This document shows, piece after piece, positions 11,004 through 34,912 of a stretch of 64,000 nucleotides of DNA (within the stretch, counting starts at the first letter, position 1; every line of letters starts with the position of its first letter). The stretch is from Gammaproteobacteria bacterium (GTDB lineage Bacteria > Pseudomonadota > Gammaproteobacteria > GCA-001735895). Made by a program: the position numbers and the translations under genes. Under the pieces are notes generated by a model. It searched no databases. It had not been told where the DNA came from and worked only from the letters and a program-made list of their open reading frames with translations. The stretch is taken from contig JBDNJA010000113.1 of assembly GCA_041688005.1 (NCBI GenBank), positions 537 through 64,536 of the forward strand, written 5' to 3'.

Positions 11004-11112
11004 TAAGCGAAAAACATTATATATATTTGCTATTTGCATGGTAGTATATTTATTCCATTGAACTCAAGATATATATTTGTCAGAGGAAGAATGCTCTTCA
11101 GGAGAAATCAAA

Positions 11113-12246
11113 TTGTCGACTCAATCTAATGATTCACACGATGTAGATATCGAGTTTCAAAATATTACCAAGCGTTTCGAAGACGTTGTGGCTGTCGACA
11201 ACGTCTCTTTAAGCGTTAACCGCGGTGCCTTTTTTAGCTTTCTGGGGCCATCTGGTTGCGGCAAAACAACCTCACTACGGCTCATAGCTGGCTTTGATCA
11301 ACCGACACAGGGTGAAGTCTTTATTGGCGGCGCCTCTGTAGTTGGAATTCCCCCACATAAACGACCAGTTAATATGGTTTTCCAGCAATATGCCCTATTC
11401 CCGCATATGACTGTCGCCGAGAATATCGGTTACGGCTTACGTCAGCGCAGTCCAAAACCAGGTAAACTCGAAATTTTAAAAAGAGTTGATGAAACCTTAG
11501 AAAAGGTACGGCTTGAGGGTTACGGGGAACGCAGAATTTGGGAGCTGTCTGGCGGCCAACAGCAACGTATAGCCCTGGCCCGCGCACTAATCAATCGTCC
11601 GACTTGCTTGTTACTGGATGAACCGCTCGCGGCACTCGATCGTAAGCTGCGTCGAGAAATGCAGATCGAACTTCAAACCTTACAACGTGACGTCGGCATT
11701 ACTTTCATATTAGTGACCCACGATCAAGAGGAAGCCCTGTCCATGAGTGATGAAATCTGCATCATGCGTGAAGGACAAATCATTCAGTCGGGCAGTCCGC
11801 GAGAGCTTTATGACGAACCACAGAACAGATATGTCGCTGACTTTGTTGGCAAAACCAATTTTTTTACTGGCGAAGTAGCTGAACTTAATGGTTCTAGAGT
11901 AACCATTAAGACGGATTCGAACGAGATATTGATTGGAACTCAGCCCAAAGGGGCCACCCCAATGATTTACGGCAACGAAGCCTCGGTAGCAGTTCGTCCG
12001 GGAATGATATCTATTTCAGCCGTAGGTGAGGCAACAAAAAGTAACAGCATTGCCATACGTGGGCAGGTGATGAACAGGATATTCCTTGGTGAAAACTCTG
12101 AGTATCTTATTAAAACTGAAGGATACGGTGAGGTAATGGTGTCATCCCCAAAATCGGTCGAAAGCGCCAGTAATAATTTTGTACCAGGAGACCCTGTTTC
12201 TCTAAGTTGGAGTTCAGAAGCTGCTCTTGTATTGGGAGACACTTAA
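11113..12246 (+). CDS. potA: Spermidine/putrescine-type ABC transporter ATP-binding protein (PotA family)
   Basis: Walker A GPSGCGKTT, signature LSGGQQQR, Walker B LLLDEP and a C-terminal TOBE-like domain. I prefer the TTG at 11113 because AGGAGA lies 7 nt upstream. The track ORF starts at TTG 11077, which has no Shine-Dalgarno. Confidence 0.85.
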   Translation: MSTQSNDSHDVDIEFQNITKRFEDVVAVDNVSLSVNRGAFFSFLGPSGCGKTTSLRLIAGFDQPTQGEVFIGGASVVGIPPHKRPVNMVFQQYALFPHMTVAENIGYGLRQRSPKPGKLEILKRVDETLEKVRLEGYGERRIWELSGGQQQRIALARALINRPTCLLLDEPLAALDRKLRREMQIELQTLQRDVGITFILVTHDQEEALSMSDEICIMREGQIIQSGSPRELYDEPQNRYVADFVGKTNFFTGEVAELNGSRVTIKTDSNEILIGTQPKGATPMIYGNEASVAVRPGMISISAVGEATKSNSIAIRGQVMNRIFLGENSEYLIKTEGYGEVMVSSPKSVESASNNFVPGDPVSLSWSSEAALVLGDT

Positions 12247-12318
12247 AATCTGTACTGACTATCCGACAGTAACAGTTATCATTTAAATCACGGATCAATT
12301 TTAACGAGGAGAGTAGTA

Positions 12319-13482
12319 ATGAGTAAAAACAACAACGATAAACCCATAACAGCAACGAAGTTCATGAAAGAACTTCGCCGTTACCAAAACGGCTCAGTTT
12401 CCCGTAGACATTTTCTCGGTATAACCGGACTCGGCACAGCTATGGCAGTGATGGGCACAGCGATGCCATCTCTGTATTCCAGCCAAGCCAATGCCTTCGG
12501 TAACGTCGGGGATCGACTGATTTTTTCAACTTGGCCTAATTATCACAACCAGGTCAATCTGGACGAATTCACCGAAATGACTGGCGCACACATCCAAGTT
12601 AATGCTTTCGGGTCAAACGAAGAAATGCTGGCTAAATTGCAAGCTGGCGGCACGGGTTGGGACGTTTTCGTACCGACTAACTACACTATTTCCAACTATG
12701 TAGAACTAGGCCTGATTCAGGAACTGGATTTATCACGAATCCCAAATTACGACGCATCGGCCAGCAACCCTAAATTTTCCGACCCCGCAACCATAGACGG
12801 CAAGGTCTACTGCGTACCTAAGAACTGGGGAACCACCGGCTTTATAGTCAATTCAAACAGGGTCAAGAGCCAGCCTAAATCATGGAAAGACTTTTTTGAT
12901 GTCACCATGGGTAAAGCGTCGGGTCATACTATTTTGCATGACTACCAATTGACTACCATCGGTGCCGCCTTGTGTGCACTGGGTTACTCGTTTAACTCTG
13001 TCGATGCCAAAGAACTAGCCGCCGCCGAAGCCTTGCTGATCAAATCCAAGCCGCACCTATTCGCAATCACTTCCGACTATCAGCCTGGAATGCGCAGCGA
13101 AGATGCCTGGTTATCGATTTGCTGGAACGGTGATGGCACGCAGCTCAAAAACGACATGCCTGAAATGGAATACGTGATCGCCAGCGATGGTGGTGAAATT
13201 TGGTCTGACTTTTATGCCATTCCAAAAGATGCACCGCATTTAGATGCGGCTTATGCCTTCTTGAACTTCATGCAGGACCCATATGTCCAGGCTCGTGACG
13301 CTGCTGTTCATGGCTATGCGCCAACTGATGCACGCGCCATTGCCTTGCAGCCAGACTCATTGGCCAGCGATCCAATTTTGCACCCTGCATTGGACTTAAT
13401 GAACGGTCTGGAGTTTGGCGCGGCTCAAACTCTGACCGACCCAATTCGAGCAGAAGTTATGGCTCGATTCAAGTCAGCTTAA
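12319..13482 (+). CDS. PotD/PotF-family periplasmic polyamine/amine-binding protein with a twin-arginine signal peptide
   Basis: SRRHFLGITGLGTAMAV...ANA-F is a Tat-type signal. The body resembles PotD/PotF-type binding proteins. Confidence 0.8.
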   Translation: MSKNNNDKPITATKFMKELRRYQNGSVSRRHFLGITGLGTAMAVMGTAMPSLYSSQANAFGNVGDRLIFSTWPNYHNQVNLDEFTEMTGAHIQVNAFGSNEEMLAKLQAGGTGWDVFVPTNYTISNYVELGLIQELDLSRIPNYDASASNPKFSDPATIDGKVYCVPKNWGTTGFIVNSNRVKSQPKSWKDFFDVTMGKASGHTILHDYQLTTIGAALCALGYSFNSVDAKELAAAEALLIKSKPHLFAITSDYQPGMRSEDAWLSICWNGDGTQLKNDMPEMEYVIASDGGEIWSDFYAIPKDAPHLDAAYAFLNFMQDPYVQARDAAVHGYAPTDARAIALQPDSLASDPILHPALDLMNGLEFGAAQTLTDPIRAEVMARFKSA

Positions 13483-13512
13483 ATCTGACGTAACACTGAA
13501 AAACGGATAACG

Positions 13513-14373
13513 ATGAGAGATCAAAGCAAATCTGGAAACTGGCTTACCGCTGTGTTGTTGGCACCCACATCTCTGTGGTTTTTGTTCATGCTGATTTTGC
13601 CTCTTGTCGTTATCCTGGTTTTTAGTTTCGGCGAACGCGCCGATGTAGGTGGCTATGCCGGAGGCTTTACTTTAGAACATTATGCGAATCTATCGACGAG
13701 ATTGAAAGCTTTTCAAAACACAATGATTATTGCGCCACTGGGTACACTTTTGTGTTTATTAGTGGCCTATCCACTGACTTATTTTTTGGCATTACGTGTT
13801 AGCCAGAAATTCAAACTGATATTACTAGTGTTAGTGATTGTGCCGTTTTGGACCAGCTTACTGGTACGAACATACGCCTGGATTTTTATACTGGGTGGCC
13901 GTGGTATACCCACACTACTAGAATTTATCGGTTTCGAAGGTGTCCGCCTCATCAATACGCAAGGGGCGGTGCTAGTCGGAATCGTTTATGGCTACTTGCC
14001 TCTAATGGTTTTCCCCATTTTTGTTTCCCTGGAGAAACTCGACAAAAGGTTGCTGGAAGCATCCAACGACCTAGGTGCCTCACCTTTCAAAACTTTTTGG
14101 CAAGTAACACTTCCTTTATCTATGCCAGGCATAGCCACTGGTTGCATGCTTGTGTTTATTCTGCTTATGGGTGAATTTATAATCCCCGCCTTTTTAGGCG
14201 GCGGTAAAGTATATTTTGTTGGTAATGCATTGGTCGACTTATTTCTGCAGTCTAGAAACTGGCCTTTTGGCGCAGCAATTTCTGTCACGTTGGTCGCTAT
14301 CATGTTGATTACTGTTACCTTTTATATGCGCATGTTTAATAGTAAAACAGGGAGAGATGAATCCCTGATGTAG
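13513..14373 (+). CDS. ABC transporter permease (PotB-like)
   Basis: Multi-pass membrane protein with the EAA-loop region ...LLEASNDLGASPFKTFWQVTLP... Confidence 0.85.
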   Translation: MRDQSKSGNWLTAVLLAPTSLWFLFMLILPLVVILVFSFGERADVGGYAGGFTLEHYANLSTRLKAFQNTMIIAPLGTLLCLLVAYPLTYFLALRVSQKFKLILLVLVIVPFWTSLLVRTYAWIFILGGRGIPTLLEFIGFEGVRLINTQGAVLVGIVYGYLPLMVFPIFVSLEKLDKRLLEASNDLGASPFKTFWQVTLPLSMPGIATGCMLVFILLMGEFIIPAFLGGGKVYFVGNALVDLFLQSRNWPFGAAISVTLVAIMLITVTFYMRMFNSKTGRDESLM

Positions 14374-14387
14374 GGGATTTAATTATT

Positions 14388-15200
14388 ATGCGAATCTACG
14401 CTATTGCAGTCTTTTTGTTTTTATACGTTCCCATCGGAATCATCGTTCTGTTTAGCTTCAACGCTGGGCAACACGCCAGCGAACTGCGCGGCCTGTCGGT
14501 TCAGTGGTATGGCAAAGCATTGTCAAATCCGTTTGTCGGTGACGCCTTTGTCACCAGCCTGATTATCGCGCTGTCTGTCGCTGTACTTTCGAGTTTACTG
14601 GGAACCACGGCTGCGTTAGCTTTGCAGCGCTTAAAAGGCCCTTTGCGAACCTTTTTCGACGGTATGATTTACGTATCAGTGATGATACCCGGTATTGTCA
14701 TCGGCATCGCCACGCTAGTAGCGCTAGTCACCGTGTTCGACTATCTCAATCCGTTACTCGCCTCCGCCTGGCCCGAAGGAATGAAGCCCCCAAAACTTCA
14801 TATGGGCTATGCCTCGGTGATTGCCGCTCATACTCTTTTCACCATGTCTCTGGTCATTATCCTAGTTAGAGCCAGAATTGCCGGCATGGACCGAACCCTA
14901 ATAGAAGCCTCGATGGATTTATACGCAACTCCGTGGCGTACTTTTTATCAAGTGACTTTGCCACAGATCTTTCCTGCCATTTTGGCCGGATTCTTACTTA
15001 GTTTCACCTTTAGCTTCGACGACTTTATTATTTCGTTTTTTGTCGCTGGGCCGAACACTACACTGCCTGTTTATATCTTCTCGTCAATTCGCAGGGGCAT
15101 AACACCGGAAGTTAACGCAATCGGCACCATGGTTCTGGCTGCTTCATTGATTTTACTGATGGCGGCTCAGTATGCCTTGCACCGTCACGGTAAGCGTTAA
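14388..15200 (+). CDS. ABC transporter permease (PotC-like)
   Basis: EAA loop ...LIEASMDLYATPWRTFYQVTLP... and operon position. Confidence 0.85.
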   Translation: MRIYAIAVFLFLYVPIGIIVLFSFNAGQHASELRGLSVQWYGKALSNPFVGDAFVTSLIIALSVAVLSSLLGTTAALALQRLKGPLRTFFDGMIYVSVMIPGIVIGIATLVALVTVFDYLNPLLASAWPEGMKPPKLHMGYASVIAAHTLFTMSLVIILVRARIAGMDRTLIEASMDLYATPWRTFYQVTLPQIFPAILAGFLLSFTFSFDDFIISFFVAGPNTTLPVYIFSSIRRGITPEVNAIGTMVLAASLILLMAAQYALHRHGKR

Positions 15201-15741: not shown

Positions 15742-17820
15742 ATGCCACGTGATCCTCGTTATGACGTTCTGTTCGAACCGGTAAAAATAGGGCCAGTTAC
15801 TGCAAAAAACCGTTTTTATCAGGCACCACATTGCAATGGAATGGGGCGTACCTTCCCATCCAGTATGGCAGCAATGCGAGGCGTGAAGGCCGAAGGTGGT
15901 TGGGCTGTAATATCAACCGAACAAATTGACATTCATCCAAGCAGCGATATAACACCCGGTACAGAAGGACGACTCTGGTCGGATAAGGACATTCCTTATC
16001 TCGCACGTATGTGTGATGCGGTTCATGAGCATGGTTCACTGGCTTCAATTGAGCCAGTTCATAATGGCTATGTGGCATCTAACCTTTACAGCCGGGAGGT
16101 ACCGATATTCCCAACACACATGCCGGTTGCTACGCATAACCATCCACTGCAGGCACGAGCCATGAATAGAACCGATATTAGAAATTATCGTCGCTGGCAC
16201 CTTGATGCGGTAAAGCGAGCTAAGAAGGCTGGTTATGATATTATTTGTTGCTATGCCGGACATAATCTGTCGCTGGCCGGCATGTTCATGCTGGACCGGT
16301 ACAATTTTCGTACCGACGAATACGGCGGCAACCTCGAGAATCGGGTTCGATTGTTTCGTGAAATCATAGAAGATACCAAGGACGCTGTAGGTGACACAAT
16401 GGGCGTTATTGTACGATTCTCTGTAGACGAACTGCGCGGTAGCGAAGGTTTGGAGGCAGACAAGGAAGGTCGCGAAATCGTCGAAATGCTAGCAGAGCTT
16501 CCCGATCTATGGGATGTCAATATTGCTGAGTGGGAAAACGACAGCATGACTAGTCGTTTTTCTGATGAAGGCTATCAGGAACCTTTTATCGACTTTGTTA
16601 AAAAAGTGACCACGAAACCGGTTGTTGCGGTTGGTCGCTACACATCACCAGACCGAATGGTCTCGCTGGTTAACAAGGGAGTTATTGATATGATTGGCGC
16701 CGCTCGGCCCTCTATTGCAGACCCTTTCCTGCCGAAAAAAATAGAAGAAGGACGTATAGACGAAATTCGAGAATGTATTGGCTGCAATATCTGTGTAGCT
16801 TGGGACAACATGATCGCACCGATGCGCTGCACTCAAAATCCAACCGCTTCGGAGGAGTGGCGTAAAGGTTGGCATCCGGAACGGATAGCTGCAAAGAAAG
16901 ATGATGGTTCAGTTCTTGTTGTGGGCGCTGGGCCCGCAGGTCTCGAGGCTGCACTAGCTGCGGGGCGGCGTGGATACGATGTCATTCTTGCCGAAGCTCG
17001 TGACGAATTGGGTGGCAGGGTCAGTTTGGAAAGTCGGTTGCCGGGCCTTGGTGCTTGGTCGAGAGTGCGCGACTACCGCAGTTATCTGCTGTCACAAATG
17101 CCCAACGTAGAAATCTACCTTAATAACCCTTTGACCTCGGCAGAAATACTGGAACTAGGATCAGCACATATAGCAATAGCAACCGGTGCAAAGTGGAGAC
17201 ATGATGGATATGGCCGCAACCATCAGTTCCCAATTCCTGGTTTGGATAAAACTAATTTACTAACGCCTGACGATATTATTGGTGGGGTTTGTCCAAAAGG
17301 GGACGTATTAATTTATGACGACGACCACTATTATATAGCTTCGGTAGTAGCTGAGTTGCTGGTTAGCCAGGGGTGCAATGTTACATTTGTAACGCCGGAA
17401 TCAGTGGTTTCGGCATGGACTGAATATACTTTGGAACAGCGCCGCATCCAGTCTCGTTTAATCGAAGTTGGCGTGACCATTGTGACCGGTTATAGACTCC
17501 GACAAGTTTCCTCAGAAGCTGTCGTTCTGGGTTGTACTTATTCTGAAAACACAAAAAATATCGAAGCATCATCTATCGTTATGGTTACTTCGCGACTACC
17601 GCAGGATAGCCTTTTTCTTGAGCTAGGGGGCGAACAGACTGACCGAGATTTAGGCCAGCTCAAGACATTGAAGGCCATAGGCGACTGTCATGGGCCAGCA
17701 ACCATTGCCGCGGCCGTATACGAAGGTCACCTATTTGCGCGAGAACTGGGCGAAGAGCCTTCCGATATACCCTATAGGCGCGAGTTGACCGAATTATCAG
17801 TAGAGTTCAAGCTACCCTAG
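15742..17820 (+). CDS. Trimethylamine/dimethylamine/histamine-dehydrogenase-family flavoprotein, paralogue 1 (FMN OYE-like domain + 4Fe-4S + ADP/FAD-type domain)
   Basis: N-terminus RDPRYDVLFEPVKIGPVTAKNRFYQAPHCNGMG, whose Cys corresponds to the 6-S-cysteinyl-FMN Cys of TMADH. Also CIGCNICx9-12C cluster motif and VLVVGAGPAGLEAA. Confidence 0.85.
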   Translation: MPRDPRYDVLFEPVKIGPVTAKNRFYQAPHCNGMGRTFPSSMAAMRGVKAEGGWAVISTEQIDIHPSSDITPGTEGRLWSDKDIPYLARMCDAVHEHGSLASIEPVHNGYVASNLYSREVPIFPTHMPVATHNHPLQARAMNRTDIRNYRRWHLDAVKRAKKAGYDIICCYAGHNLSLAGMFMLDRYNFRTDEYGGNLENRVRLFREIIEDTKDAVGDTMGVIVRFSVDELRGSEGLEADKEGREIVEMLAELPDLWDVNIAEWENDSMTSRFSDEGYQEPFIDFVKKVTTKPVVAVGRYTSPDRMVSLVNKGVIDMIGAARPSIADPFLPKKIEEGRIDEIRECIGCNICVAWDNMIAPMRCTQNPTASEEWRKGWHPERIAAKKDDGSVLVVGAGPAGLEAALAAGRRGYDVILAEARDELGGRVSLESRLPGLGAWSRVRDYRSYLLSQMPNVEIYLNNPLTSAEILELGSAHIAIATGAKWRHDGYGRNHQFPIPGLDKTNLLTPDDIIGGVCPKGDVLIYDDDHYYIASVVAELLVSQGCNVTFVTPESVVSAWTEYTLEQRRIQSRLIEVGVTIVTGYRLRQVSSEAVVLGCTYSENTKNIEASSIVMVTSRLPQDSLFLELGGEQTDRDLGQLKTLKAIGDCHGPATIAAAVYEGHLFARELGEEPSDIPYRRELTELSVEFKLP

Positions 17821-18805: not shown

Positions 18806-19588
18806 CTACGAGGTGGAGTTGTCGGCAACGACCTTTCCTGGGGTGAAGGCACAGTAGACCTTGGTGACAGGGACATCGCACTGCCATTTGTATTGCGCGC
18901 CTAGTGGAACGAAACAAGCCTCCCCGCTCTTGAACACCTGGCTATTGCCAACACCATCTGAGACAGTTGCTTCGCCTTCAAGAATGCACATCAAGTCGAA
19001 ATGATCGAATTCGCATACCGGACGCTCAAAGGCAGTGCTGTTCCAGATGCCAACCGTAAACTGGCCTGTAACGTCGGTGTAATAGATATGGTTATGCTGA
19101 TCAGGGACAATACCGATGATCTGACTGGTGTCCGCAATGACGATAGGTGTCTTGGCGTCGCTCGGTCTTGGAGTCATAATGCCATACCGAGCAGGGTTAT
19201 CGTGAACTTCGTCTCCCCTACCAGAGAAGATAACGAAGTACTTGCGTATATACTCGGTTTGCACCCAGCGGCAAATCAAGCCTTTCGGGACGATAAAACT
19301 TTCACCTGCAGAAATGGTTGTTGAGGCGCCGTCTTCCAGCTCCATGGTGACTGACCCTTCCAGTACATACATGAATTCTTCGACCGAATAGGGTTCCATT
19401 TTTCCTCGAAAAGGAGTGCAGTCCCAGACTCCAGCCATCAGGCCTGAAGCTTCGTCATTGTAATATAAATGCCCGCGCTGGACTGGCTCACCGCTCTCAA
19501 TGTCAGCCGGGTCCATGACATCCCACTCCACTAGTTTAGTGTCAGCTGGGCCTTCAAGTTCAAACCGGGTAACTTTATTAACATTCAT
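18806..19588 (-). CDS. Bicupin protein (two cupin_3/DUF861-like repeats)
   Basis: There are two internally repeated halves, each with a ...G.W.ST/CTPF...E...ILEG...V... pattern. Confidence 0.7.
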   Translation of the reverse strand: MNVNKVTRFELEGPADTKLVEWDVMDPADIESGEPVQRGHLYYNDEASGLMAGVWDCTPFRGKMEPYSVEEFMYVLEGSVTMELEDGASTTISAGESFIVPKGLICRWVQTEYIRKYFVIFSGRGDEVHDNPARYGIMTPRPSDAKTPIVIADTSQIIGIVPDQHNHIYYTDVTGQFTVGIWNSTAFERPVCEFDHFDLMCILEGEATVSDGVGNSQVFKSGEACFVPLGAQYKWQCDVPVTKVYCAFTPGKVVADNSTS

Positions 19589-20193
19589 AGGACGTTCCTT
19601 AGTGCATCAAATTAATCAATACCATAGGTTATATGGTTAGCGAGAAAGCGATTAAACTTCTGAGTTCGGCTAATATATCACCTGCTGTCGGCATCGTAGA
19701 GACCTTTTTTATTCATAACTTTAATTTAATAATATGCTCGAATCGATGGCTGTTTTGTCGATGCGATTTTCATTGACTAATAGAATCTTAAAAATAGAGA
19801 GCCTCTTAGAAATGATTGACAGAAGTCTAAGGGTTAGTCTCACGCGGAAGTATCCAGTTTACAGCACCGTTAGCGAGGGTCATGTTTCGCATTTCTGACA
19901 GCTTTCTTGAAGCAAAAGTCCTGATGCAATTTGCGAAAATAGCACGACTTTTTCGGGTGAACTTGAGTGACTGATTTCAAAATTAACAACCTTGCAGTAA
20001 CTGATCAAAATTTTAATCCGTTGTCACCTTTTACCTCTCCTTTTCTCCATCAAGCCAAGACAAACATGTTGTTTTTCCCGTGAGGCAGTTCGGGTAGCCA
20101 CGCTTCACGCCGCGTTATTTGGACTCATGAAACTGCTTGAGATTGAATAAGGACTCGCCGGAGCCGTTAGTACGATATAATGCTTTGGTTATA

Positions 20194-20209
20194 TTGATTG
20201 ATCAGTCAA
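20194..20209. promoter_or_regulatory. Candidate TetR/BetI-type operator TTGATTGATCAGTCAA (7 of 8 dyad positions)
   Basis: It lies 61 nt upstream of the tetR start, within the TATTGATTGATCAGTCAAAATA context. It resembles the BetI-type TTGATTG half-site. Confidence 0.45.
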
Positions 20210-20269
20210 AATAAAGTAAAATACACTTCCCTTATAGATATAATCAGCGATTTATAGAGTCATGTATTT

Positions 20270-20908
20270 ATGTTGATTTCAACTCAACCCAGTCGGCCTC
20301 AAAAACGAGATCGATCTGTCGGTAACGAAGCTCGACGACGACAGTTAATCGAGGCGACGATAGAGTCGATCTCAGTTCATGGGCTTAACAAAACGACCTT
20401 GGGTACAGTTACCAAAATTGCGAACCTCTCGCATGGCGTGGTCAACTTTCATTTCAAGAGCAAAGATTTGCTATTACTTGAAGCGTTGCGTTTTCTTGTT
20501 GATGAGCATATTGATCATTGGCAGGCAGGCCTAAACCAAGCCGGTGACAGCGCGCCCGATAAACTGTTGGCAATGGTTGCTACTGATTTTGACGAAGAAA
20601 TTGCCAATCCGAAACGTCTCTCGGTTTGGTTTGCTTATTGGGGCGAAGTTAATAATCGTCCCGCCTATCGCGAAATTGCCGGTAACAATGATCGACAACG
20701 ACGGAATGAAATCAAACGACTCTGTCAGAGTTTAATCGAGCAAGGTGACTACAAAGGCATCGATGCCGAAGTATTCAGTACTAATCTCGAAGCACTTATC
20801 GATGGCTTATGGTTAAGCATCTTGATGGCGCCGAGTAAAATGACGGCGCAAAAGGCAAAAAACAATTGCCGGACATTTCTGTCAGCCATTTTTTTCAAAC
20901 ATTTTTAA
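20270..20908 (+). CDS. TetR-family transcriptional regulator (BetI-like C-terminal domain)
   Basis: N-terminal HTH ...RRRQLIEATIESISVHGLNKTTLGTVTKIANLSHGVVNFHFKSKDLLL... Confidence 0.85.
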   Translation: MLISTQPSRPQKRDRSVGNEARRRQLIEATIESISVHGLNKTTLGTVTKIANLSHGVVNFHFKSKDLLLLEALRFLVDEHIDHWQAGLNQAGDSAPDKLLAMVATDFDEEIANPKRLSVWFAYWGEVNNRPAYREIAGNNDRQRRNEIKRLCQSLIEQGDYKGIDAEVFSTNLEALIDGLWLSILMAPSKMTAQKAKNNCRTFLSAIFFKHF

Positions 20909-20929: not shown

Positions 20930-22996
20930 ATGGCTCGCAATCCTCGTTATGACATTTTATTCGAACCAGTGAAAATTGGCCCAGTAACGGCCAAGAATCG
21001 TTTTTATCAAGTACCACATTGCAATGGTATGGGTCACCAGTACCCATCTAGCATGGCAGAAATGCGCGGTGTCAAAGCCGAAGGTGGCTGGGCTGTCGTG
21101 TGCACCGAAGAAGTCGAAGTATCGCATATTTCTGAACATAGCCCTCTGGTTGAAGGTCGACTTTGGGACGACAGGGACATTCCTGTGTTTGAGAAAATGA
21201 CGGATAAAATTCATCAGTATGGTGGATTAGCGGGTATTCAGCCCACTTTTCTCGGTGCGAACGCAGGAAATTTATACAGTCGTGAAATTCCGCTAGCTCC
21301 ATCTTTGAGGCCGGTAGAAGGTTACGCGCCGATTCAGGCTCGCGCTATGACTCGAGCAGACATTCGTAACGTACGCAAATGCTATGTCGATGCGGCCTTA
21401 CGTGCCAAACGAGCGGGGTTCGACATTATTTACAATTACGCGGCGCATGACGAAACTGTTCAAATGCATTTTCTATCGCGTCGGCACAACCAGCGTACGG
21501 ATGAATACGGCGGTTCTTTGGAGAACCGAAGCCGCTTGTTTCGAGAAGTCATGTCGGACATGAAAGATGCGGTGGGTGATACCTGTGCCATAGCCGTACG
21601 CTTTGCTGTCGATGAATTGCTCGGTTTAGACGGTATATCTTGCGATGCGGAAGGGCACGATATTATCGAAATGTTAGCCGAAGTACCGGACCTTTGGGAT
21701 GTTAACGTCAGTTCCTGGGAAAACGACTCGCTGCCATCACGGTTTGGAGAAATGGGAAGTCAGGAACAGTACACATCGTTTGTTAAACAGGTTACTGGTA
21801 AGCCGGTTGTCGGCGTTGGCCGCTACACTTCGCCGGATAAAATGGTGTCGCTCATTAAAAGCGGGAAGCTGGACTTGATTGGTGCTGCGCGCCCCTCGAT
21901 TGCAGATCCCTTCTTACCGAATAAAATCGACGAAGGCCGAGAAGAAGACATACGTGAATGTATCGGCTGTAATATTTGTGTCACTGCCGACTTTACTTGC
22001 ACACCGTTTCGTTGTACGCAAAACCCGACCATGGGTGAAGAATGGCGACGTGGCTGGCATCCGGAAAATATAGCCCCTAAAAAGAGTGACGATAGTGTTT
22101 TGATAGTCGGAGCAGGTCCTGCCGGACTCGAAGCCGCTCAAGCATTGGGCAAGCGAGGTTATGAAGTCATTCTCGCCGAAGTAGGTACCGAGTTGGGTGG
22201 TCGTGTTATTAAAGAATCCAGTTTGCCGGGGCTAAGTGAATGGATACGGGTGCGGGACTATCGAGAAGGCCAGTTAATCAAGCTCGCTAATGTTGAAATC
22301 TATCGAGACAACTGGTTAGACGCAGCACAAATTCTAGAATTCGGTTTCCAGCATGTCGCCATTGCTACCGGCTCCCAATGGCTAAGTGATGGCCGAGGTC
22401 GAATTAACCACTTTGCCATTGATGGTCATCAACAAGCACATGTATTCACGCCTGACGATATTATGAAGGGTGCTGTGTTACAGGGCAGCGTCACCATTTT
22501 TGACGACGACCATTTTTACATGGGCGGTGTTCTGGCTGAAAAACTACGCAGTGAAGGTCACGAGGTAACGCTGGTTACACCGGCCGCGGATGTGTCAAGC
22601 TGGACACATAACACGCTCGAACAGGAACGTATTCAAACACGCTTGCTGGAAATGGACGTTATCATCAAAGCGCATCGAAACCTCTGTGAGATTAAAGTAG
22701 GCGAAGTCGAATTAGCCTGCACCTTTACCGATAGGCGCGAACGCTTACAAGCCGATAATGTCGTCATGGTGACCATGCGTGAACCCATTGATGGGCTTTA
22801 TCAGGAATTGAGTGACAATCAATTGGCACTGGATACGGCGGGTATTAAGTCGCTGACCTCAATTGGTGATTGCCTCTCCCCCGGCATTATAGCGGCGGCC
22901 GTTTGGAGTGGGCACCGTTATGCCCGTGAGCTTGATGAACCTGTCAGTGATGAAGTCCCATTTAAACGCGAGCTGCCAGGGCAACTGGTTGTATAG
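20930..22996 (+). CDS. TMADH-family flavoprotein, paralogue 2
   Basis: Same architecture and motifs as paralogue 1 (VPHCNGMG, CIGCNICVTADFTCTPFRCTQN, VLIVGAGPAGLEAA). It starts 21 nt after tetR. Confidence 0.85.
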   Translation: MARNPRYDILFEPVKIGPVTAKNRFYQVPHCNGMGHQYPSSMAEMRGVKAEGGWAVVCTEEVEVSHISEHSPLVEGRLWDDRDIPVFEKMTDKIHQYGGLAGIQPTFLGANAGNLYSREIPLAPSLRPVEGYAPIQARAMTRADIRNVRKCYVDAALRAKRAGFDIIYNYAAHDETVQMHFLSRRHNQRTDEYGGSLENRSRLFREVMSDMKDAVGDTCAIAVRFAVDELLGLDGISCDAEGHDIIEMLAEVPDLWDVNVSSWENDSLPSRFGEMGSQEQYTSFVKQVTGKPVVGVGRYTSPDKMVSLIKSGKLDLIGAARPSIADPFLPNKIDEGREEDIRECIGCNICVTADFTCTPFRCTQNPTMGEEWRRGWHPENIAPKKSDDSVLIVGAGPAGLEAAQALGKRGYEVILAEVGTELGGRVIKESSLPGLSEWIRVRDYREGQLIKLANVEIYRDNWLDAAQILEFGFQHVAIATGSQWLSDGRGRINHFAIDGHQQAHVFTPDDIMKGAVLQGSVTIFDDDHFYMGGVLAEKLRSEGHEVTLVTPAADVSSWTHNTLEQERIQTRLLEMDVIIKAHRNLCEIKVGEVELACTFTDRRERLQADNVVMVTMREPIDGLYQELSDNQLALDTAGIKSLTSIGDCLSPGIIAAAVWSGHRYARELDEPVSDEVPFKRELPGQLVV

Positions 22997-23035: not shown

Positions 23036-25108
23036 ATGAGTAAACGTGATCCTCGATACGACCCTTTATTTGAACCTGTAAAAATCGGGCCGGTTACGGC
23101 TAAAAATCGATTTTATCAAGTTCCCCACTGTACTGGCATGGGTTGGATGCGGCCACGTATGGTGGCCGACTTGCGTGGCGTGAAGGCCGAAGGTGGTTGG
23201 GGTGTGGTTTGCACGGAGTATTGCTCAATACACCCAAGTTCTGACGATGCGCCATACCCATCACATTCGCTTTGGGATAAAAACGATATCAAATCGCATC
23301 GGTTAATGACCGACAAACTACACGAGCACGGTGCGCTTGCGGGCGCTGAGCTTTGGGTGTCGGGCAGTCGTTCTGCTAATTTACTCACTCGTGAAGTACC
23401 TATGGATGTGGCGTCATTGCCCAATAGTAACGGTGACCCCTATCAATCCCGAACAATGGACAGAGCTGACATCAAAGAACTCAAGCGTTGGCACCGTAAC
23501 GCCGCATTGCGAGCCAGGGACGCCGGGTTCGATATCGTTTATGTTTACGCGACACATGAATATTTGTTTGACAATTTTCTCAATCCTAAATTGAATACGC
23601 GCAGCGACGAATATGGTGGCTCACTTGAGAATAGAATGCGATTGGTGCGCGAAATTATCGAAGAAACCAAAGATGCGGTTGGCGACAAATGCGCCGTCGC
23701 CGTTCGTTTTACCGTCGATGATGGTGGTGGTGCTGATGGCGTTCCTGTTCACGGCGAACGAATGGAGATGTTCGAATCAATGGCTGAGTTACCGGATCTT
23801 TGGGATATCAATATCTCGGATTACTCGTTGGAAATGGGCGTATCCCGATTCGTCAAAGAAGGCTCACTCGAAACTTATATGTCGGAGGTTAAATCGAAAA
23901 CCAGTAAACCGGTTGTTACCGTCGGACGGTTTACCTCGCCAGATACCATGATTAGCCAGGTGAATCGCGGCATTGTTGATTTTATTGGTGCCGCCCGACC
24001 ATCGATAGCAGACCCTTTTTTACCCCAAAAAATTGAGCAGGGCAGACCTGAAGATATTCGCGAGTGCATTGGTTGTAATATTTGCTATACCGGTGACAGT
24101 CGGCATGTGCCAATTCGGTGTACCCAAAATCCAACCATGGGCGAAGAATGGCGACGTGGCTGGCACCCAGAAAAGATTGATCCGAAAGGGTCGGACAGCC
24201 AAATATTGATTGTCGGTGCAGGCCCAACTGGTTTGGAAGCCGCTCGCGCACTCGGTCAGCGAGGTTACGACGTGATACTGGCCGAAGCCAGTCGGGAACT
24301 GGGTGGTCGTGTCAACCACGAAAGCCGGCTTCCAGGTTTAGCCGAGTGGGCCAGAGTACGTGATTATCGAGTGACTCAAATGGCCAAAATGCCCAATGTA
24401 GCGGTTTACCTAGAAAATAATCTAGCGCTCGACGATATTCTGGAAATTGGCGCCGACCATGTTGCCATTGCAACAGGGGCAACATGGCGTCGGGATGGTT
24501 TTGGCAGCTACCATATTGTTCCAATGCAGCCTTTGCCACCGACCGAATCGACATATACTCCCGACGACATTATGTCGGGGCGCTTACCTGTTGGCAGCAC
24601 ACTGGTGTATGACGACGATGGTTTTTATATGGGCAGTGTTATTGCCGAGAAACTCCGAGAGAATGGTAACCCGGTCATTTACTTGACGCCGGAACCGAAG
24701 GTTTCAAGTTGGAGTAGTAACAATGCCGAGCAACCTCGAGTTCATCGTCGCTTGGTTGAACTGGGTGTTGAAATTATATTAAATTATGGGCTGGATGCCT
24801 TCGATGGCGAACAGGCCGTTTTAGGATGCAGCTATACCGGTCAGCAGCGGAACGTCTCGGTCGAGAATGTCGTCATGGTTAGTAGTCGTACGCCTCAGGA
24901 TCAGCTTTATTATAGTTTGCTTGGTGCAATAGAGAATAATCGACCAGGCGCACCGAAAACAGTTAAACGAATCGGGGATGCTGAAGCACCCGCGATTATT
25001 GCGGCTGCGGTCTTTTCTGGTCATAAGTATGCCCGCGAAATCGACGTCGAAATCGACCGTGATAACCCTTTCAAACACGATAGAGTCTTTTTTGAAGACA
25101 ACCAGTAA
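23036..25108 (+). CDS. TMADH-family flavoprotein, paralogue 3
   Basis: VPHCTGMG, TEYCSIHPSSDD (closest of the three to the TMADH motif as I recall it), CIGCNICYTGDSRHVPIRCTQN and ILIVGAGPTGLEAA. Confidence 0.85.
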   Translation: MSKRDPRYDPLFEPVKIGPVTAKNRFYQVPHCTGMGWMRPRMVADLRGVKAEGGWGVVCTEYCSIHPSSDDAPYPSHSLWDKNDIKSHRLMTDKLHEHGALAGAELWVSGSRSANLLTREVPMDVASLPNSNGDPYQSRTMDRADIKELKRWHRNAALRARDAGFDIVYVYATHEYLFDNFLNPKLNTRSDEYGGSLENRMRLVREIIEETKDAVGDKCAVAVRFTVDDGGGADGVPVHGERMEMFESMAELPDLWDINISDYSLEMGVSRFVKEGSLETYMSEVKSKTSKPVVTVGRFTSPDTMISQVNRGIVDFIGAARPSIADPFLPQKIEQGRPEDIRECIGCNICYTGDSRHVPIRCTQNPTMGEEWRRGWHPEKIDPKGSDSQILIVGAGPTGLEAARALGQRGYDVILAEASRELGGRVNHESRLPGLAEWARVRDYRVTQMAKMPNVAVYLENNLALDDILEIGADHVAIATGATWRRDGFGSYHIVPMQPLPPTESTYTPDDIMSGRLPVGSTLVYDDDGFYMGSVIAEKLRENGNPVIYLTPEPKVSSWSSNNAEQPRVHRRLVELGVEIILNYGLDAFDGEQAVLGCSYTGQQRNVSVENVVMVSSRTPQDQLYYSLLGAIENNRPGAPKTVKRIGDAEAPAIIAAAVFSGHKYAREIDVEIDRDNPFKHDRVFFEDNQ

Positions 25109-25122
25109 TCTGGAAATTAACT

Positions 25123-27525
25123 ATGCCCGCTAGCGATGAAAATGATATCCGCTTTCTAAACCCTGAACCGCCAAAATTTACGCAACAGCAGGCTAAGCAA
25201 AGCGCCTTCGACCTGTTTGGACTGACTGGGGAAATGAAACCCTTATATAGCGAACGTGATCAAAATTTCCGAATTCGAAGTCCGAAAGACGATTTTGTTT
25301 TCAAAATTTCAAATGCGCATGAAGATGCCAGCGTGATCGATTTGCAAACTAAAACATTGTTGCATCTAGCTAAAAATGATCCGAACTTACCTGTACCAGA
25401 AGTGGTTCTAAACAAAAATGGTAAAGACCACGACTTCATAGAAGCTGATGATGGCAAACAGCATATGGTTAGAGTATTAACTTACTTGCCCGGCGTAGTC
25501 ATGGCCGACCTGCCTACCAGTGACGCTTTGTATCAAGATGTCGGTGCCGTTATGGCAAGATCTGGCATTGCCTTGAGAGATTTTTTCCACCCCGCCGCCG
25601 GTTATGATTTGCTGTGGGATCTGCGCCAATTACCCAAAATTCGTTGTTTGACTCAATACCTTGACGACGCCACTTTGCGTGAAATGGTTGAGCAGGATCT
25701 CGATTTTACCTGCGAATATATTCTGCCGCAGTTATCCGGTATGCGTAGTCAAATAATTCACAATGATGGCAATATTCACAACCTCATCGTTGATCCCAAT
25801 AATCCCGACAAGGTCAGCGGGCTAGTCGATTTTGGTGACATGATGCACGCTCCCCTTATCTTTGACCTAGCCGTTTCGGCGGGCTCATTGACGTTAGACT
25901 CGACTGATCCTTTGGCAGTGATGTGTCAGGTTGCTGCGGGCTATGACCGTGTCTTACCGCTTGAAGAAAAAGAAATCGACCTGTTGTCGCATTTGGCCGT
26001 TGGTCGAATAAGTCAGGAACTATTAATCGCTGCAAAACGCCGACACGATGACCCTAATGCGGCTGAGTATGTGCTGGCGGACGAAGCTTCGTTTTCTAAA
26101 ATCATACTAGTATTACTCAATGTTGGACATCAGGCTATGCGCGCCCGCCTACGCGAAATTTGTCGCTTTCCCTGTGCAGATAATGGCAAAGTCGAAGTGC
26201 CCAATTCTCAAGTCGATGATATTGCACCCTTGCTTAAACGTCGCGAACAGACCTTAGGTAAAACGCTGGAACTGGCTTACGACAAGCCTTTTCATGTCGT
26301 TCGCGGTGAAGGAGTTTGGCTATATGACGCGGATGGAAATCGCCATCTAGACGTTTATAACAATGTTCCTCATGTCGGTCATTGTCATCCACATGTGGTA
26401 AAAACAGTGAGCCGACAACTGGCCACCCTAAACACCAATACACGGTATTTGTTTGACAATGTAGTGAGCTACGCCGAACGTTTGGCTGCGAGTTTGCCGA
26501 GTGATCTTAGTAGCTGTATTTTTGTTAATTCGGGCAGTGAGGCCAACGATGCGGCGATGCGTATTGCCCGCACCCTGACTAAGAAACAGGGTGCAATCAT
26601 AATGGAAGACGCGTATCACGGCATAACCGAATCAATCGACGAACTATCGCCTGCGGCCTATCCTGGGGTGCAAGCACCAAATCCGGTAGCAAGGGTGCGT
26701 ACCCTCGAAGCTCCCGATATGTATCGTGGACGTTTTCGCGACGATCCTGAAAATGCGTCTAGGCTTTACGCGCAAAGTGCAGACACAGCGATACAAAGCT
26801 TGCAGGAAATCGGTCTGGGTACGGCAGCCTTTATGATCGATTCATCATTTAGTAGCAATGGTATTTTGCCGGTATTACCCGGCTATTTACCCGCCGTAAC
26901 CGATAAGGTACGAGCGGCTGGTGGTTTGATAATCGCCGACGAAGTTCAAATAGGTTTTGGTCGTTGCGGCTCCCATTTTTGGGGGTTCGAAGCGCAGGCA
27001 ATCATGCCCGATATCGTCACGCTCGGAAAACCCATCGGTAACGGTATTTCTCTGGGTGTCGTCGTCACCACGCCCGCTATTCGTGAAGCGTTTGGCGAGG
27101 AAATCGACTTTTTCAGTACCTTTGGTGGTAACCCGGTAGCCTGCGCGGCAGCCCATGCCGTGTTCGACGTTATCGAGCAGGAAGGTTTATTAGAAAATGC
27201 GCGTGACAATGGCCACTATATGCGGGAAGGCTTACGTCAGATAAGCGACCAATATCCTGCAATAGGTGACGTGCGTGGACAGGGTTTGTTCATCGGCATC
27301 GAAATAGTAACAGACCGTATTAGCAAGCAACCAGACGCTATGATGGCGGACCGAATTCGAAACCGCCTTCGAGAAAAACGGGTGTTGGTCGGTCGTGAAT
27401 CGCGCACTGGAAACGTCATCAAAGTTCGACCCCCGCTAGCCTTTCGTCGCGAACACACGGATATTTTGCTGGAAGCCTTTGGAGAGACGCTAGCCGAACT
27501 TTGCCCATCAGTTCAACCTAGATAG
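25123..27525 (+). CDS. Fusion protein: N-terminal APH-type (aminoglycoside-phosphotransferase-fold) kinase plus C-terminal class-III aminotransferase-fold PLP enzyme (AGXT2L/phospho-lyase-like)
   Basis: The kinase half has the Brenner motif IHNDGNIHN and Mg site LVDFGDM. The PLP half has ...VNSGSEANDAA..., ...IADEVQIGFGRCG... and the PLP-lysine context DIVTLGKPIGNG. Confidence 0.8.
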   Translation: MPASDENDIRFLNPEPPKFTQQQAKQSAFDLFGLTGEMKPLYSERDQNFRIRSPKDDFVFKISNAHEDASVIDLQTKTLLHLAKNDPNLPVPEVVLNKNGKDHDFIEADDGKQHMVRVLTYLPGVVMADLPTSDALYQDVGAVMARSGIALRDFFHPAAGYDLLWDLRQLPKIRCLTQYLDDATLREMVEQDLDFTCEYILPQLSGMRSQIIHNDGNIHNLIVDPNNPDKVSGLVDFGDMMHAPLIFDLAVSAGSLTLDSTDPLAVMCQVAAGYDRVLPLEEKEIDLLSHLAVGRISQELLIAAKRRHDDPNAAEYVLADEASFSKIILVLLNVGHQAMRARLREICRFPCADNGKVEVPNSQVDDIAPLLKRREQTLGKTLELAYDKPFHVVRGEGVWLYDADGNRHLDVYNNVPHVGHCHPHVVKTVSRQLATLNTNTRYLFDNVVSYAERLAASLPSDLSSCIFVNSGSEANDAAMRIARTLTKKQGAIIMEDAYHGITESIDELSPAAYPGVQAPNPVARVRTLEAPDMYRGRFRDDPENASRLYAQSADTAIQSLQEIGLGTAAFMIDSSFSSNGILPVLPGYLPAVTDKVRAAGGLIIADEVQIGFGRCGSHFWGFEAQAIMPDIVTLGKPIGNGISLGVVVTTPAIREAFGEEIDFFSTFGGNPVACAAAHAVFDVIEQEGLLENARDNGHYMREGLRQISDQYPAIGDVRGQGLFIGIEIVTDRISKQPDAMMADRIRNRLREKRVLVGRESRTGNVIKVRPPLAFRREHTDILLEAFGETLAELCPSVQPR

Positions 27526-28915: not shown

Positions 28916-29592
28916 TGACGCTGCTGAACGAACATTTGACCGATGTAACTCACTCCGACGGTGGCATCATCACGATGAATTTCTGCGAACCCACCTACGG
29001 CGTCGACGACGGAGGCTATCACCCCGCCGATTTATATAGTCCTTGGGTGAGCTGCTGTATCTGACTGACTTCGCTTACTTCGATAAACCTTTTGTGGAGA
29101 TAGGTATAGAGTTCGACCGAAATTTCGAGCCGGACAGTTTCCGACAATACTATTCATTTTATGATCTGAATTTCGGCAGAAGCTTGCTCGACTTAATTTA
29201 CCCACAATTTCACCGACTACTAATGTTCGGGCATCAAGATCGTCTTGCTGTCCGTGTCTATCACTATTTGAAGCCTATTTTTCGCGATCAAAAAGATGCA
29301 CGGCTGCGAATCATTATGCTTTTGGGTTGGCCCAAGTGGCTGGCCTACGACAGGCTGCCAGCCTCACCATACTCTGTCGCAATTTCGCGTCCCATAGTTC
29401 CCCCATGTAGTGGCCGAAATCTTCCCAGGTCGGCAAATCTGGAGGACTCTGAGCAGGCACTGACTGATGCAGAGAGGCACAGATTCAGCTGCAAGGAGAA
29501 TCGTCAGATGGAAAATGCGCAAAACTCGGTACCTTATATGAAGAAAAAAACACCGAGGCCAATATGCAACTAATCACCAACATAAATCACTC

Positions 29593-30293: not shown

Positions 30294-31589
30294 ATGATTA
30301 CTTCAAACCTCAAAAACCATCCGCAGCGAATTAGCCTCAATAACGAGGTGCACGCGCGGCCTTATCAAATTATGAGCGCCCCACTGCGGGTGACGCATGT
30401 GGCCTTGCTGTCGGATGATCGTAGTAAAGACCTTCACGCTATTAGAGAACTCTGTGAGCGCTACGGCGTCAATAGACCCAATCAGGACGCCAGATTTTAT
30501 ATCGGCGATTTCCCACTATTTCAACTGCGTTGGGAACGGCACACCGAGTTTTCTACCTATACGATTAGTGAAGCGTGCTCAAACTCAACGCCATTCAAAG
30601 AAACAGTACTGTCGAAGTTACCCATTGAGTGGATTGCGCGCTTGCCTGGTGAAGTGATTACGATGCTAAGCCTTGAGTTGCTTGCTAGACAAGATGATAA
30701 CCAAGCAGAACATCGCGATTTTGATGCGCTATCGGAATTATTCTCGTCGAATACTGTGGCCGGAAGTGAGGTGTCAGATGGCGCGGCTCGAGTTTGGTCC
30801 GACTTTCATATTCATGCCAATGGCTTCAATCGAATTTTGATCGAGAATCACCATTTGCGGCATCGACAGGCGGGGCGTCTGGTGCAACGTATTCTTGAAA
30901 TCGAAACTTATCGAATGTTTGCGCTACTAGGGCTACCACTAGCCAGACAATATTCGCTGGACTTAACCGATTGTGATTCAAGACTGGAAACAGTGACTCA
31001 GAAATTGGCTTTACACAGTGAAGGCGAGAATGAACAACAGTTATTAGATGAGTTAAGCCGGATTGCTGCCAATGTAGAGCATATAGCAGCAACGGGTGGT
31101 TATCGTTTTTCAGCAACCAATGCTTATTATGGCCTGGTTAAGCGTCGGATTAGTGAATTACGTGAAAAGAGAATCGAAGGCGCGCAGTCATTTAACGAAT
31201 TTATGGAGCGACGTCTGGCGCCGGCGGTGCGAACCTGTGAATCAGTATCTGATCGAATGCAGGCATTATCGAATCGTATTGCGCGAGTCAGTGCCTTATT
31301 ACGAACCCGCATTAACATCAATCTGGAGGCTCAAAATCGCGATTTGTTACGCTCGATGGATCGACGAGCAGCGATGCAGTTGCGCTTGCAGGAAATGGTT
31401 GAAGGGTTGTCGGTTGTCGTATTAAGTTACTACAGCGTGGGATTGCTTGGTTATGCGTTAAAGGGCTTGAAGCAATTCGGCGTCAACCTGAATGTTGATT
31501 TAGTGGTTGGCATTTCGGTGCCTGTTATCGTCATCGCAGTATTGGTGGGTTTGCGAATGACTCGTCGTAGGTTAGAAAAAAAAGGTTGA
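30294..31589 (+). CDS. DUF3422-like membrane-anchored protein (two C-terminal TM helices)
   Basis: The N-terminus ...HPQRISLNNEVHARPYQIMSAPLRVTHVALL... matches my recollection of DUF3422 proteins. The C-terminus has hydrophobic segments. Confidence 0.5.
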   Translation: MITSNLKNHPQRISLNNEVHARPYQIMSAPLRVTHVALLSDDRSKDLHAIRELCERYGVNRPNQDARFYIGDFPLFQLRWERHTEFSTYTISEACSNSTPFKETVLSKLPIEWIARLPGEVITMLSLELLARQDDNQAEHRDFDALSELFSSNTVAGSEVSDGAARVWSDFHIHANGFNRILIENHHLRHRQAGRLVQRILEIETYRMFALLGLPLARQYSLDLTDCDSRLETVTQKLALHSEGENEQQLLDELSRIAANVEHIAATGGYRFSATNAYYGLVKRRISELREKRIEGAQSFNEFMERRLAPAVRTCESVSDRMQALSNRIARVSALLRTRININLEAQNRDLLRSMDRRAAMQLRLQEMVEGLSVVVLSYYSVGLLGYALKGLKQFGVNLNVDLVVGISVPVIVIAVLVGLRMTRRRLEKKG

Positions 31590-33561: not shown

Positions 33562-33588
33562 TGGCTCTGATGATAACAGGAGAGAGCA

Positions 33589-34038
33589 ATGTCTGATCTA
33601 TCAGTTGATATTGTCTGGAACAGAACCTCAGCGGAGTTGATGCCGGGTCAATTTTCGAATGCCCATGATGTAAACTACAATCAACAGATTAGAGTGAAGG
33701 CCGATGCGGCACCTGACTGGGGAGGCAATGCGGAATATACCAATCCCGAGCAAGCTTTGGCAGCGGCAGTGAGTAGCTGTCATTTGATGACTTTTCTGGC
33801 GTTAGCTGCAAAAACAAAGTGGTCTGTTGCTTCGTTCACAGATCACGCAGTTGCTCATTTAGGTAAGAATGCCAAAGGTCAAATATCGGTCACGAGAATT
33901 GATTTACATCCAGTGGTTGAGTTTGATTTAGGTTTTAACGTGAGTGCGGATGAGCTACAAAAAATGCATGAAAGAGCGCATCGATATTGCTTCATTGCCA
34001 ATACACTCGATGCTAGTGTTGAAATTAATATTTACTGA
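33589..34038 (+). CDS. OsmC/Ohr-family peroxiredoxin-like protein
   Basis: Size, a conserved Cys context (...AVSSCHLMTFL...) and a second Cys (...AHRYCFIANT...). Confidence 0.7.
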   Translation: MSDLSVDIVWNRTSAELMPGQFSNAHDVNYNQQIRVKADAAPDWGGNAEYTNPEQALAAAVSSCHLMTFLALAAKTKWSVASFTDHAVAHLGKNAKGQISVTRIDLHPVVEFDLGFNVSADELQKMHERAHRYCFIANTLDASVEINIY

Positions 34039-34086
34039 TAACATAGTTGCGTTTGGTAGTCCTGTTAGTCATACGAGGTTGAAGTC

Positions 34087-34911: not shown

Positions 34912-34912
34912 C

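Follow-up and report, generated by a model that had tools for sequence, protein, structure and literature searches.

In vertebrates, hydroxylysine is phosphorylated by hydroxylysine kinase (HYKK, also AGPHD1) and then processed by a phospho-lyase, the two being consecutive enzymes of one pathway. The lyases PHYKPL (AGXT2L2) and ETNPPL (AGXT2L1) are stand-alone pyridoxal phosphate (PLP) enzymes whose kinase partner is encoded by a separate gene. In bacteria, work of the 1970s on Erwinia and Pseudomonas is said to have found amino-alcohol kinase and O-phosphate phospho-lyase activities, to which, to our knowledge, genes were never firmly assigned. Bacterial proteins that join the two domain types are already known: 'bi- or tri-functional' fusions reportedly served Veiga-da-Cunha, in 2012, as a clue for assigning the vertebrate enzymes. 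The protein analysed here is an ordinary further member of this type, an 800-residue fusion encoded in a stretch of 64,000 nucleotides of gammaproteobacterial DNA (contig JBDNJA010000113.1; the window in what follows). An earlier note, made from the DNA letters alone, had interpreted it as an amino-alcohol kinase joined to a phospho-lyase. Homology supports this interpretation, the enzymes named there being the nearest characterised relatives of both halves, and we consider it likely that the protein is a bifunctional enzyme deaminating a primary 1,2-amino alcohol in two steps.

The gene is a single open reading frame (ORF). The 690-aa ORF upstream ends at 25108, which leaves a 14-nt spacer carrying a weak GGAA before the start at 25123, the distance given in the earlier note. 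Pfam assigned the two ends of the protein to APH (PF01636, aa 45-272, E 9e-25) and to Aminotran_3 (PF00202, aa 389-789, E 4e-73), as had been proposed, and the motifs quoted in that note were all located in the translation: IHNDGNIHN at aa 212-220, LVDFGDM at aa 234-240 and the PLP-lysine context DIVTLGKPIGNG at aa 630-641. Features are listed in Table 1. Conservation was assessed in an alignment of 188 fusions having 35-100% identity to the window protein, in which the 14 catalytic and signature residues checked in the two halves together are invariant.

The kinase half shares its fold, its catalytic residues and end-to-end homology with HYKK-type kinases. BLASTP aligned it to human HYKK over 353 residues at 28% identity (E 1e-45, 148 bits), and profile-profile comparison by hhalign gave a probability of 100% over 329 columns (E 7e-51). 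The human query sequence was authenticated by a 100% database match; its primate orthologues (94-95% identity) are named hydroxylysine kinase. The motifs KISN, TYLPG, HxDxxxxN and DFGDM are common to both proteins. HYKK differs in standing alone and in acting on 5-hydroxylysine, while the bacterial half may accept smaller amino alcohols. Within the catalytic loop, D215 and N220 are found in all 188 fusions and H213 in 186. Searched against the Protein Data Bank (PDB) as a single sequence, the kinase half retrieved only noise, including DARPins; solved relatives emerged with a 15-sequence profile, which ranked 6EF6 first (E 2e-10), amicoumacin kinase second and 2PPQ third. The structure 6EF6 is that of an aminopropanol kinase and 2PPQ is described as a kinase with unknown target (PMC7314540). 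An AlphaFold (AF2) model of aa 1-366 (pLDDT 89, pTM 0.87; aa 351-366 disordered) gave Foldseek TM scores of 0.70 to 2PPQ, the top match, and to 6EF6. These data support assignment of this half to the HYKK-type small-molecule kinases, with phosphorylation of a 1,2-amino alcohol as its predicted activity.

The PLP half has the class-III fold, with Lys636 and Asp606 in place, and lies closest to phospho-lyases. Among all PDB sequences, it scored highest with human ETNPPL (6TOR, 366 bits; 42% identity over 417 residues) and with the Arthrobacter aurescens phospholyase A1RDF1 (5G4I/5G4J, 350 bits; 44% identity over 425 residues). The next matches were dialkylglycine decarboxylase (DGD) with 199 bits and racemases and transaminases with at most 182 bits. 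The gap was the same in NCBIfam, where the fusion models PRK06148 (801 bits) and PRK06149 (575 bits) stood well above the best aminotransferase model (243 bits). In an alignment with 6TOR, 5G4I and DGD, the NNVxHVGH motif, Arg441 and Lys767 are common to the window protein and both lyases, and not to DGD. The stretch GNVIKVRPPL around Lys767 corresponds to NVLKIKPP in ETNPPL and to NVLKMRPP in A1RDF1, while DGD has GGVFRIAPPL, whose arginine we take to be Arg406, the carboxylate-binding residue of class-III enzymes. This arginine of class-III aminotransferases proper is thus replaced by a lysine here. The residues N413, N414, H420, R441, Y498, H499, D606, Q609, K636 and K767 are invariant among the 188 fusions. 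The lyase signature used here (a lysine for the carboxylate arginine, NNVxHVGH and NTNxR) was derived in this analysis and does not come from a published definition. The likeness to ETNPPL, the vertebrate lyase used for comparison, extends to the motifs NNVxHVGHCHP, NTNxR[YF]L, GKPxGNG and NV[IL]K and, by prediction, to the same 1,2-elimination of phosphate and ammonia. A1RDF1 is itself bacterial and carries the same signature residues; it differs in being a stand-alone protein of 446 aa that has no fused kinase. It was reportedly found by Cuetos et al. in 2016 to be without transaminase activity and to act on O-phosphoethanolamine. Membership of the PLP half in the phospho-lyase clade is supported by these comparisons, and release of Pi and NH3 is predicted.

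The two-step interpretation follows from the homology of the halves to consecutive enzymes of one vertebrate pathway. The HYKK-type kinase (Lys61, Asp215, Asn220, Asp236) would use ATP to phosphorylate the hydroxyl adjoining an aminomethyl group. The PLP domain (Lys636, Asp606) would then form an external aldimine with the primary amine, take the alpha-proton and eliminate phosphate, and hydrolysis of the resulting enamine/imine would yield an aldehyde and ammonia. The predicted net reaction is amino alcohol + ATP + H2O -> aldehyde + NH3 + Pi + ADP, and would need neither a 2-oxoacid acceptor nor cobalamin. Fold, family and intact catalytic residues are seen in the protein itself; both activities and the order of kinase before lyase are predicted from homologues. 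The most likely substrates are ethanolamine or 1-amino-2-propanol, which would give acetaldehyde or propionaldehyde, although the pointers diverge, with 6TOR named for ethanolamine phosphate, the nearest kinase acting on hydroxylysine and the nearest solved kinase on aminopropanol. The earlier note further had the O-phospho intermediate channelled between the halves. This is unsupported, as the AlphaFold monomer of the full-length protein (pTM 0.51, linker aa 349-364 disordered, aa 382-440 of low confidence) is uninformative on channelling.

Other explanations were weighed against this two-step deamination. Merging of two separate genes by a sequencing or assembly error, for which the earlier note had allowed, is ruled out by the data. 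The same protein is encoded, with identical sequence, on contigs of two separate sequencing runs, and GC content is flat over the kinase/PLP junction. Among the collected loci, the halves are contiguous on one strand in 114 and split by an insert in 18, five more having a stand-alone lyase. The junction residues R344, R374, Y386 and P389 are kept in 93-100% of the 188 homologues. Both domains are present in every one of the best 120 database relatives (46-100% identity, length about 790 aa), and the leading matches among thousands of metagenome proteins have the same length and both domains. Its recurrence in the genomes of at least 594 species, belonging to many phyla, shows the fusion to be genuine; no point in favour of an error was found, and its probability is practically nil. 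Hardly more credible is a chance fusion in which the kinase half would be a resistance aminoglycoside phosphotransferase or a type-II homoserine kinase. It would account for the Pfam family being APH and for the deposition of the top Foldseek match 2PPQ as a homoserine kinase. However, 2PPQ is 17% identical to the kinase half, and HYKK is a far better match (148 bits pairwise) than the resistance enzymes APH(2''), APH(3') and APH(9), which show no close similarity (Foldseek TM 0.43-0.56; profile E about 3e-3 over a core of 70-80 residues). That the PLP half is an ordinary class-III aminotransferase, next to a kinase half with an unrelated or regulatory role, is very unlikely, even though NCBI names close homologues 'aminotransferase class III-fold pyridoxal phosphate-dependent enzyme' and the majority of characterised class-III enzymes are transaminases (PMC8154272). 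All transaminases, decarboxylases and racemases of the PDB score at least 150 bits below the phospho-lyases, and the lysine at the position of the carboxylate arginine is invariant in 188 sequences. Moreover, a kinase that makes a good leaving group beside an amine explains the fusion, which a transaminase does not.

A bacterial counterpart of the vertebrate HYKK/PHYKPL pair, converting free 5-hydroxy-L-lysine (for instance from collagen breakdown) to 5-phosphohydroxylysine and on to 2-aminoadipate semialdehyde, NH3 and Pi, would agree with the nearest characterised relative of the kinase half being hydroxylysine kinase. It could also be linked to the saccharopine-dehydrogenase-like, acyl-CoA dehydrogenase and E1 dehydrogenase genes 17-24 kb upstream. 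These genes are, however, distant, on the opposite strand and below the cut-off of every lysine-pathway model, and the NCBIfam search of window positions 1-8 kb gave no specific support for a lysine or hydroxylysine pathway. The only two solved relatives of the PLP half are named ethanolamine-phosphate phospho-lyase (6TOR) and phospholyase (5G4I), and the regulator and transporter genes upstream of the fusion resemble choline/polyamine systems rather than amino-acid systems. We regard hydroxylysine as an improbable substrate. The two-step deamination of a primary 1,2-amino alcohol has points against it as well. With only 28% identity to HYKK and 16-17% to any solved kinase, the kinase half is too divergent for its substrate to be read from the sequence. 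Assignment of the PLP half to the lyase clade depends on a score margin and on the signature derived here, and was made with a PDB set that has no AGXT2-type transaminases. Arabidopsis At3g08860, which is about 36% identical to 5G4I, is a true alanine aminotransferase (PMC6750192). The phosphate-contact roles of Arg441 and Lys767 are our own inference. No aldehyde dehydrogenase gene was seen among the Pfam-scanned ORFs of the gene's surroundings or elsewhere in the window, and no biochemically characterised bacterial fusion was found in the searchable literature. Finally, the link between the fusion and the dehydrogenase genes upstream (see below) is real but facultative and specific to a small clade.

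Table 1. Features of the fusion gene and of the genes upstream of it (window positions; aa, amino acid of the fusion protein; TMADH, trimethylamine dehydrogenase; L numbers, collected loci).
Feature	Position	Strand	Basis or remark
PotABCD-like ABC importer: ATPase, PotD/PotF-like binding protein, two permeases	11077..15200	+	possible uptake system, weak link
TMADH/histamine-dehydrogenase paralogue 1	15742..17820	+	Pfam/family models
Double Cupin_3 (DUF861, EutQ-like) bicupin, accompanies the cassette	18806..19588	-	Pfam
BetI-type TetR regulator, heading the co-directional run TetR, paralogue 2, paralogue 3, fusion	20270..20908	+	Pfam TetR_N + TetR_C_6
TMADH/histamine-dehydrogenase paralogue 2	20930..22996	+	orthologue with 81-93% identity in L083, L086
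TMADH/histamine-dehydrogenase paralogue 3, directly upstream of the fusion	23036..25108	+	6DE6 E 8e-218, 3K30 E 4e-216, TMADH E 1e-164
Fusion ORF, ATG start, stop codon included, 800 aa	25123..27525	+	ORF call, translation, Pfam
Kinase half, about aa 8-348, APH/protein-kinase-like fold, HYKK-type	25144..26166	+	Pfam, AF2, Foldseek, BLASTP, hhalign
Lys61 (VFKISN), predicted ATP-binding lysine	25303..25305	+	invariant 188/188; VLKISN in HYKK; role from kinase-fold knowledge
Catalytic loop HxDxxxxN, H213-N-D215-G-N-I-H-N220	25759..25782	+	aligns with HGDLNDHN of HYKK
LVDFGDM, aa 234-240, DFG-like, predicted Mg2+-binding Asp236	25822..25842	+	D236 188/188; ILDFGDM in HYKK
Linker between the two domains, aa 349-366, of variable length and sequence	26167..26220	+	pLDDT <50 in both models; mostly gap columns in the 188-sequence alignment
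Class-III-fold PLP half, phospho-lyase clade, aa 367-800	26221..27522	+	Pfam; PDB scores
NNVPHVGHC, aa 413-421	26359..26385	+	common to ETNPPL and A1RDF1; two residues shorter than in DGD
Arg441 (NTNTRYL), candidate phosphate ligand	26443..26445	+	invariant 188/188; Arg in ETNPPL and A1RDF1, Glu in DGD
DEVQ, aa 606-609; Asp606 predicted partner of the PLP pyridine nitrogen	26938..26949	+	D606 and Q609 invariant; role from class-III fold knowledge
DIVTLGKPIGNG, aa 630-641, Schiff-base lysine Lys636	27010..27045	+	K636 188/188; aligns with GKP lysine of 6TOR and 5G4I
Lys767 (NVIKVRPP), at the position of the DGD carboxylate Arg	27421..27423	+	K767 188/188

The kinase 6EF6, the best solved profile match, is from Mycobacterium smegmatis and obeys the same proposed logic of a kinase followed by a class-III phospho-lyase. 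It differs from the window protein in its 16% identity and in its genetic setting, where kinase and lyase are separate genes of an aminoacetone/aminopropanol microcompartment locus. None of the partners of such RMM microcompartments (shell proteins, amino-alcohol dehydrogenase, aldehyde dehydrogenase) was found among the Pfam-scanned window ORFs or in the Pfam listing of 15-37 kb; the fusion is not part of a microcompartment locus. The cobalamin-dependent ethanolamine ammonia-lyase EutBC arrives at the products predicted for the fusion, acetaldehyde and ammonia from ethanolamine, a functional analogy only: its fold is unrelated and it works by a radical mechanism with adenosylcobalamin and no ATP, while the fusion would use one ATP and PLP only.

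A scan of one genome per species detected relatives of the fusion in at least 594 genomes, from Alpha- and Gammaproteobacteria, Actinomycetota, Chloroflexota, Acidobacteriota, Bacteroidota, Planctomycetota and other phyla. A search with the kinase half among 1.84 billion cluster representatives yielded 1108 clusters at E <=1e-30, of which the best 150 are a mix of stand-alone proteins of about 350 aa (many) and longer ones of about 780 or about 1000 aa. In the longest, the kinase and PLP halves are separated by a Peptidase_M23 domain, and both bi-domain and tri-domain (APH-M23-class III) architectures were confirmed. Two tri-domain relatives of 1001-1015 aa come from soil metagenomes (L124 7001-10045, L125 7001-10003). 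Where the kinase stands alone, no lyase gene was called beside it at two loci (L172, L174), and at a third (L173) the ORF that follows has no similarity to the PLP half; the flanks of the five stand-alone lyase loci contain no kinase. The proteins of PRK06148 and PRK06149, named 'hypothetical protein' or 'aminotransferase', have the same two end domains as the window protein within about 1000 aa of APH, Peptidase_M23 and class-III modules. They differ by an M23 insert of about 200 aa, and Pfam detected no Peptidase_M23 domain in the window protein. Owing to this missing insert, it falls below the cut-offs of PRK06148 (NF004799; 801 versus 1128 bits) and PRK06149 (NF004800; 575 versus 973 bits), and it is a bi-domain relative of these proteins, not a member of the models. 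The public annotation of the family, as judged from the NCBI names of close homologues, is aminotransferase.

No gene accompanies the fusion throughout the family. When the window proteins were compared by BLAST with 80 genome loci, TMADH-like genes were found in two of them. All-against-all clustering of neighbours revealed nothing recurrent near the fusion gene, and a Pfam census of 77 co-directional neighbours counted at most three per family. At 25 of 70 loci the fusion gene has no close co-directional neighbour. This pattern, a gene often alone and with no recurring neighbour family, fits a self-sufficient two-step module.

The window copy is distinguished by its position at the end of a co-directional run behind TMADH-like genes, a clade-specific operon that would be a lead to the natural substrate. 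The adjacency of its upstream neighbour, named TMADH paralogue 3 in the earlier note, stood, and the name needs a minor correction: the protein matches histamine dehydrogenase (E 8e-218) better than it does trimethylamine dehydrogenase (E 1e-164). It retains the cysteine of the 6-S-cysteinyl-FMN linkage and the four Fe-S cysteines. The three paralogues of the window (688-692 aa) share 53-58% mutual identity and all have the FMN-linking and Fe-S cysteines as well as the histamine-dehydrogenase-type Asp. Paralogues 1, 2 and 3 differ in the pocket, with TEQ, TEE and TEY at one site and Trp, Trp and Tyr at another; these are presumably the sites of Tyr60 and Trp264 of trimethylamine dehydrogenase. 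The differences suggest three different amine substrates or successive steps. The product of the TetR gene scores 105-110 bits with BetI models, under their cut-offs, and a TetR gene occupies the same position in L083, L085 and L086.

The clade of the window protein comprises nine loci (64-100% identity), eight of them evaluable since L087 is cut off upstream. A paralogue-3 orthologue is found directly upstream of the fusion in six of the eight, namely in the window and, with 79-92% identity, in L003, L083, L085, L086 and L092; the end of the orthologue and the start of the fusion share 4 nt in L085 and L086. No paralogue-3 gene lies upstream of the fusion in L084 and L088. Outside the clade, the distant fusion of L019 (43% identity) stands beside a TMADH-like gene, a TetR gene, a bicupin gene and a Pot-type importer, the only such transporter next to the cassette outside the window. 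In total, linkage to a TMADH-like gene was seen at seven of 148 fusion-bearing loci. The bicupin (250-260 aa) accompanies the cassette in six loci: the window, L003 (5803-6552), L019 (9158-9895), L085 (13095-13847), L086 (13097-13849) and L092 (about 4346-5110). Its sole solved relative is the uncharacterised 3MYX and its match to EutQ is below threshold. A GST-like gene separates the bicupin gene from the fusion in L085 and L086. The paralogue-2 orthologue of L085 (5869-7645) is split into ORFs of 216 and 377 aa by a frameshift or a sequencing error. Scans for promoters and terminators over 19.4-28.7 kb gave counts not above those in shuffled sequence, and Rfam and tRNA scans detected nothing near the fusion locus.

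The paralogue-3 protein also occurs without the fusion. A protein of the same 90% cluster (about 91% identical) is encoded on three ENA metagenome contigs (L089-L091) and is placed by NCBI in Candidatus Njordibacter (sp. Uisw_056). The island around it (7111-20251) contains a further TMADH-like gene, two TetR genes and genes for a Pot-type ABC importer, for a stand-alone class-III PLP enzyme of 460 aa and for a Rieske oxygenase. It seems to be another arrangement for amine catabolism in a close relative.

As a tentative possibility, which we hold to be doubtful, the fusion could catalyze the last step of an undescribed amine-catabolic cassette present in a clade of marine Gammaproteobacteria and in one alphaproteobacterial metagenome-assembled genome. 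Such a cassette would consist of the BetI-type TetR regulator, two or three dehydrogenase paralogues with different pockets, the DUF861 bicupin and sometimes a PotD-type importer. Its flavoprotein dehydrogenases would act on an amino alcohol that is N-substituted or polyamine-like (candidates: N-methyl- or N,N-dimethylethanolamine, diethanolamine and 2-hydroxyputrescine), either removing N-alkyl groups or breaking a C-N bond. The primary 1,2-amino alcohol thus exposed would then be deaminated by the fusion at the cost of one ATP and without cobalamin. No amino-alcohol pathway linked to TMADH was found in the searchable literature.

The earlier note had called the bacterial fusions essentially uncharacterised biochemically, which agrees with the outcome of our literature search. 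Part of a 2025 review cites the 2012 paper where it says that gene fusions can reveal functions of uncharacterised partners. The fusion family is an obvious candidate for the orphan bacterial amino-alcohol kinase and phospho-lyase activities. If it were confirmed in this role, bacteria would have an ATP-driven way, independent of cobalamin, of turning ethanolamine-type compounds into aldehyde and ammonia. This would bear on nitrogen and carbon scavenging in B12-poor seawater and soil, and would correct a systematic misannotation as aminotransferase, in a family known from the genomes of at least 594 species and from thousands of metagenome proteins.

Several other features of the window were recorded. 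A 64-aa fragment (about 15221-15415, minus strand; L001 99-293) that weakly resembles an IS1595-family DDE transposase is situated between paralogue 1 and the ABC permease gene and hints at a past rearrangement at that join. Just downstream of the fusion locus, on the plus strand, are a 176-aa ORF without family match (29043-29573) and a gene for a DUF3422 protein (30294-31589, E 3e-163). They are followed at 32407-36553 (plus strand) by genes for a DmdA-like protein of the GcvT family, an OsmC-like protein, an enoyl-CoA hydratase and an acyl-CoA synthetase, with an AsnC regulator in front. This four-gene run resembles a cluster of the dimethylsulfoniopropionate (DMSP)-demethylation type; its DmdA-like protein scores 366 bits with the DMSP demethylase model, whose cut-off is 410 bits. 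A 6S RNA gene (Rfam RF00013, 99.9 bits) is found at 54300-54482 of the minus strand. The genes around it are housekeeping genes (purK, trp operon, ilvA, pepP, ald), by which the window is identified as chromosomal core.

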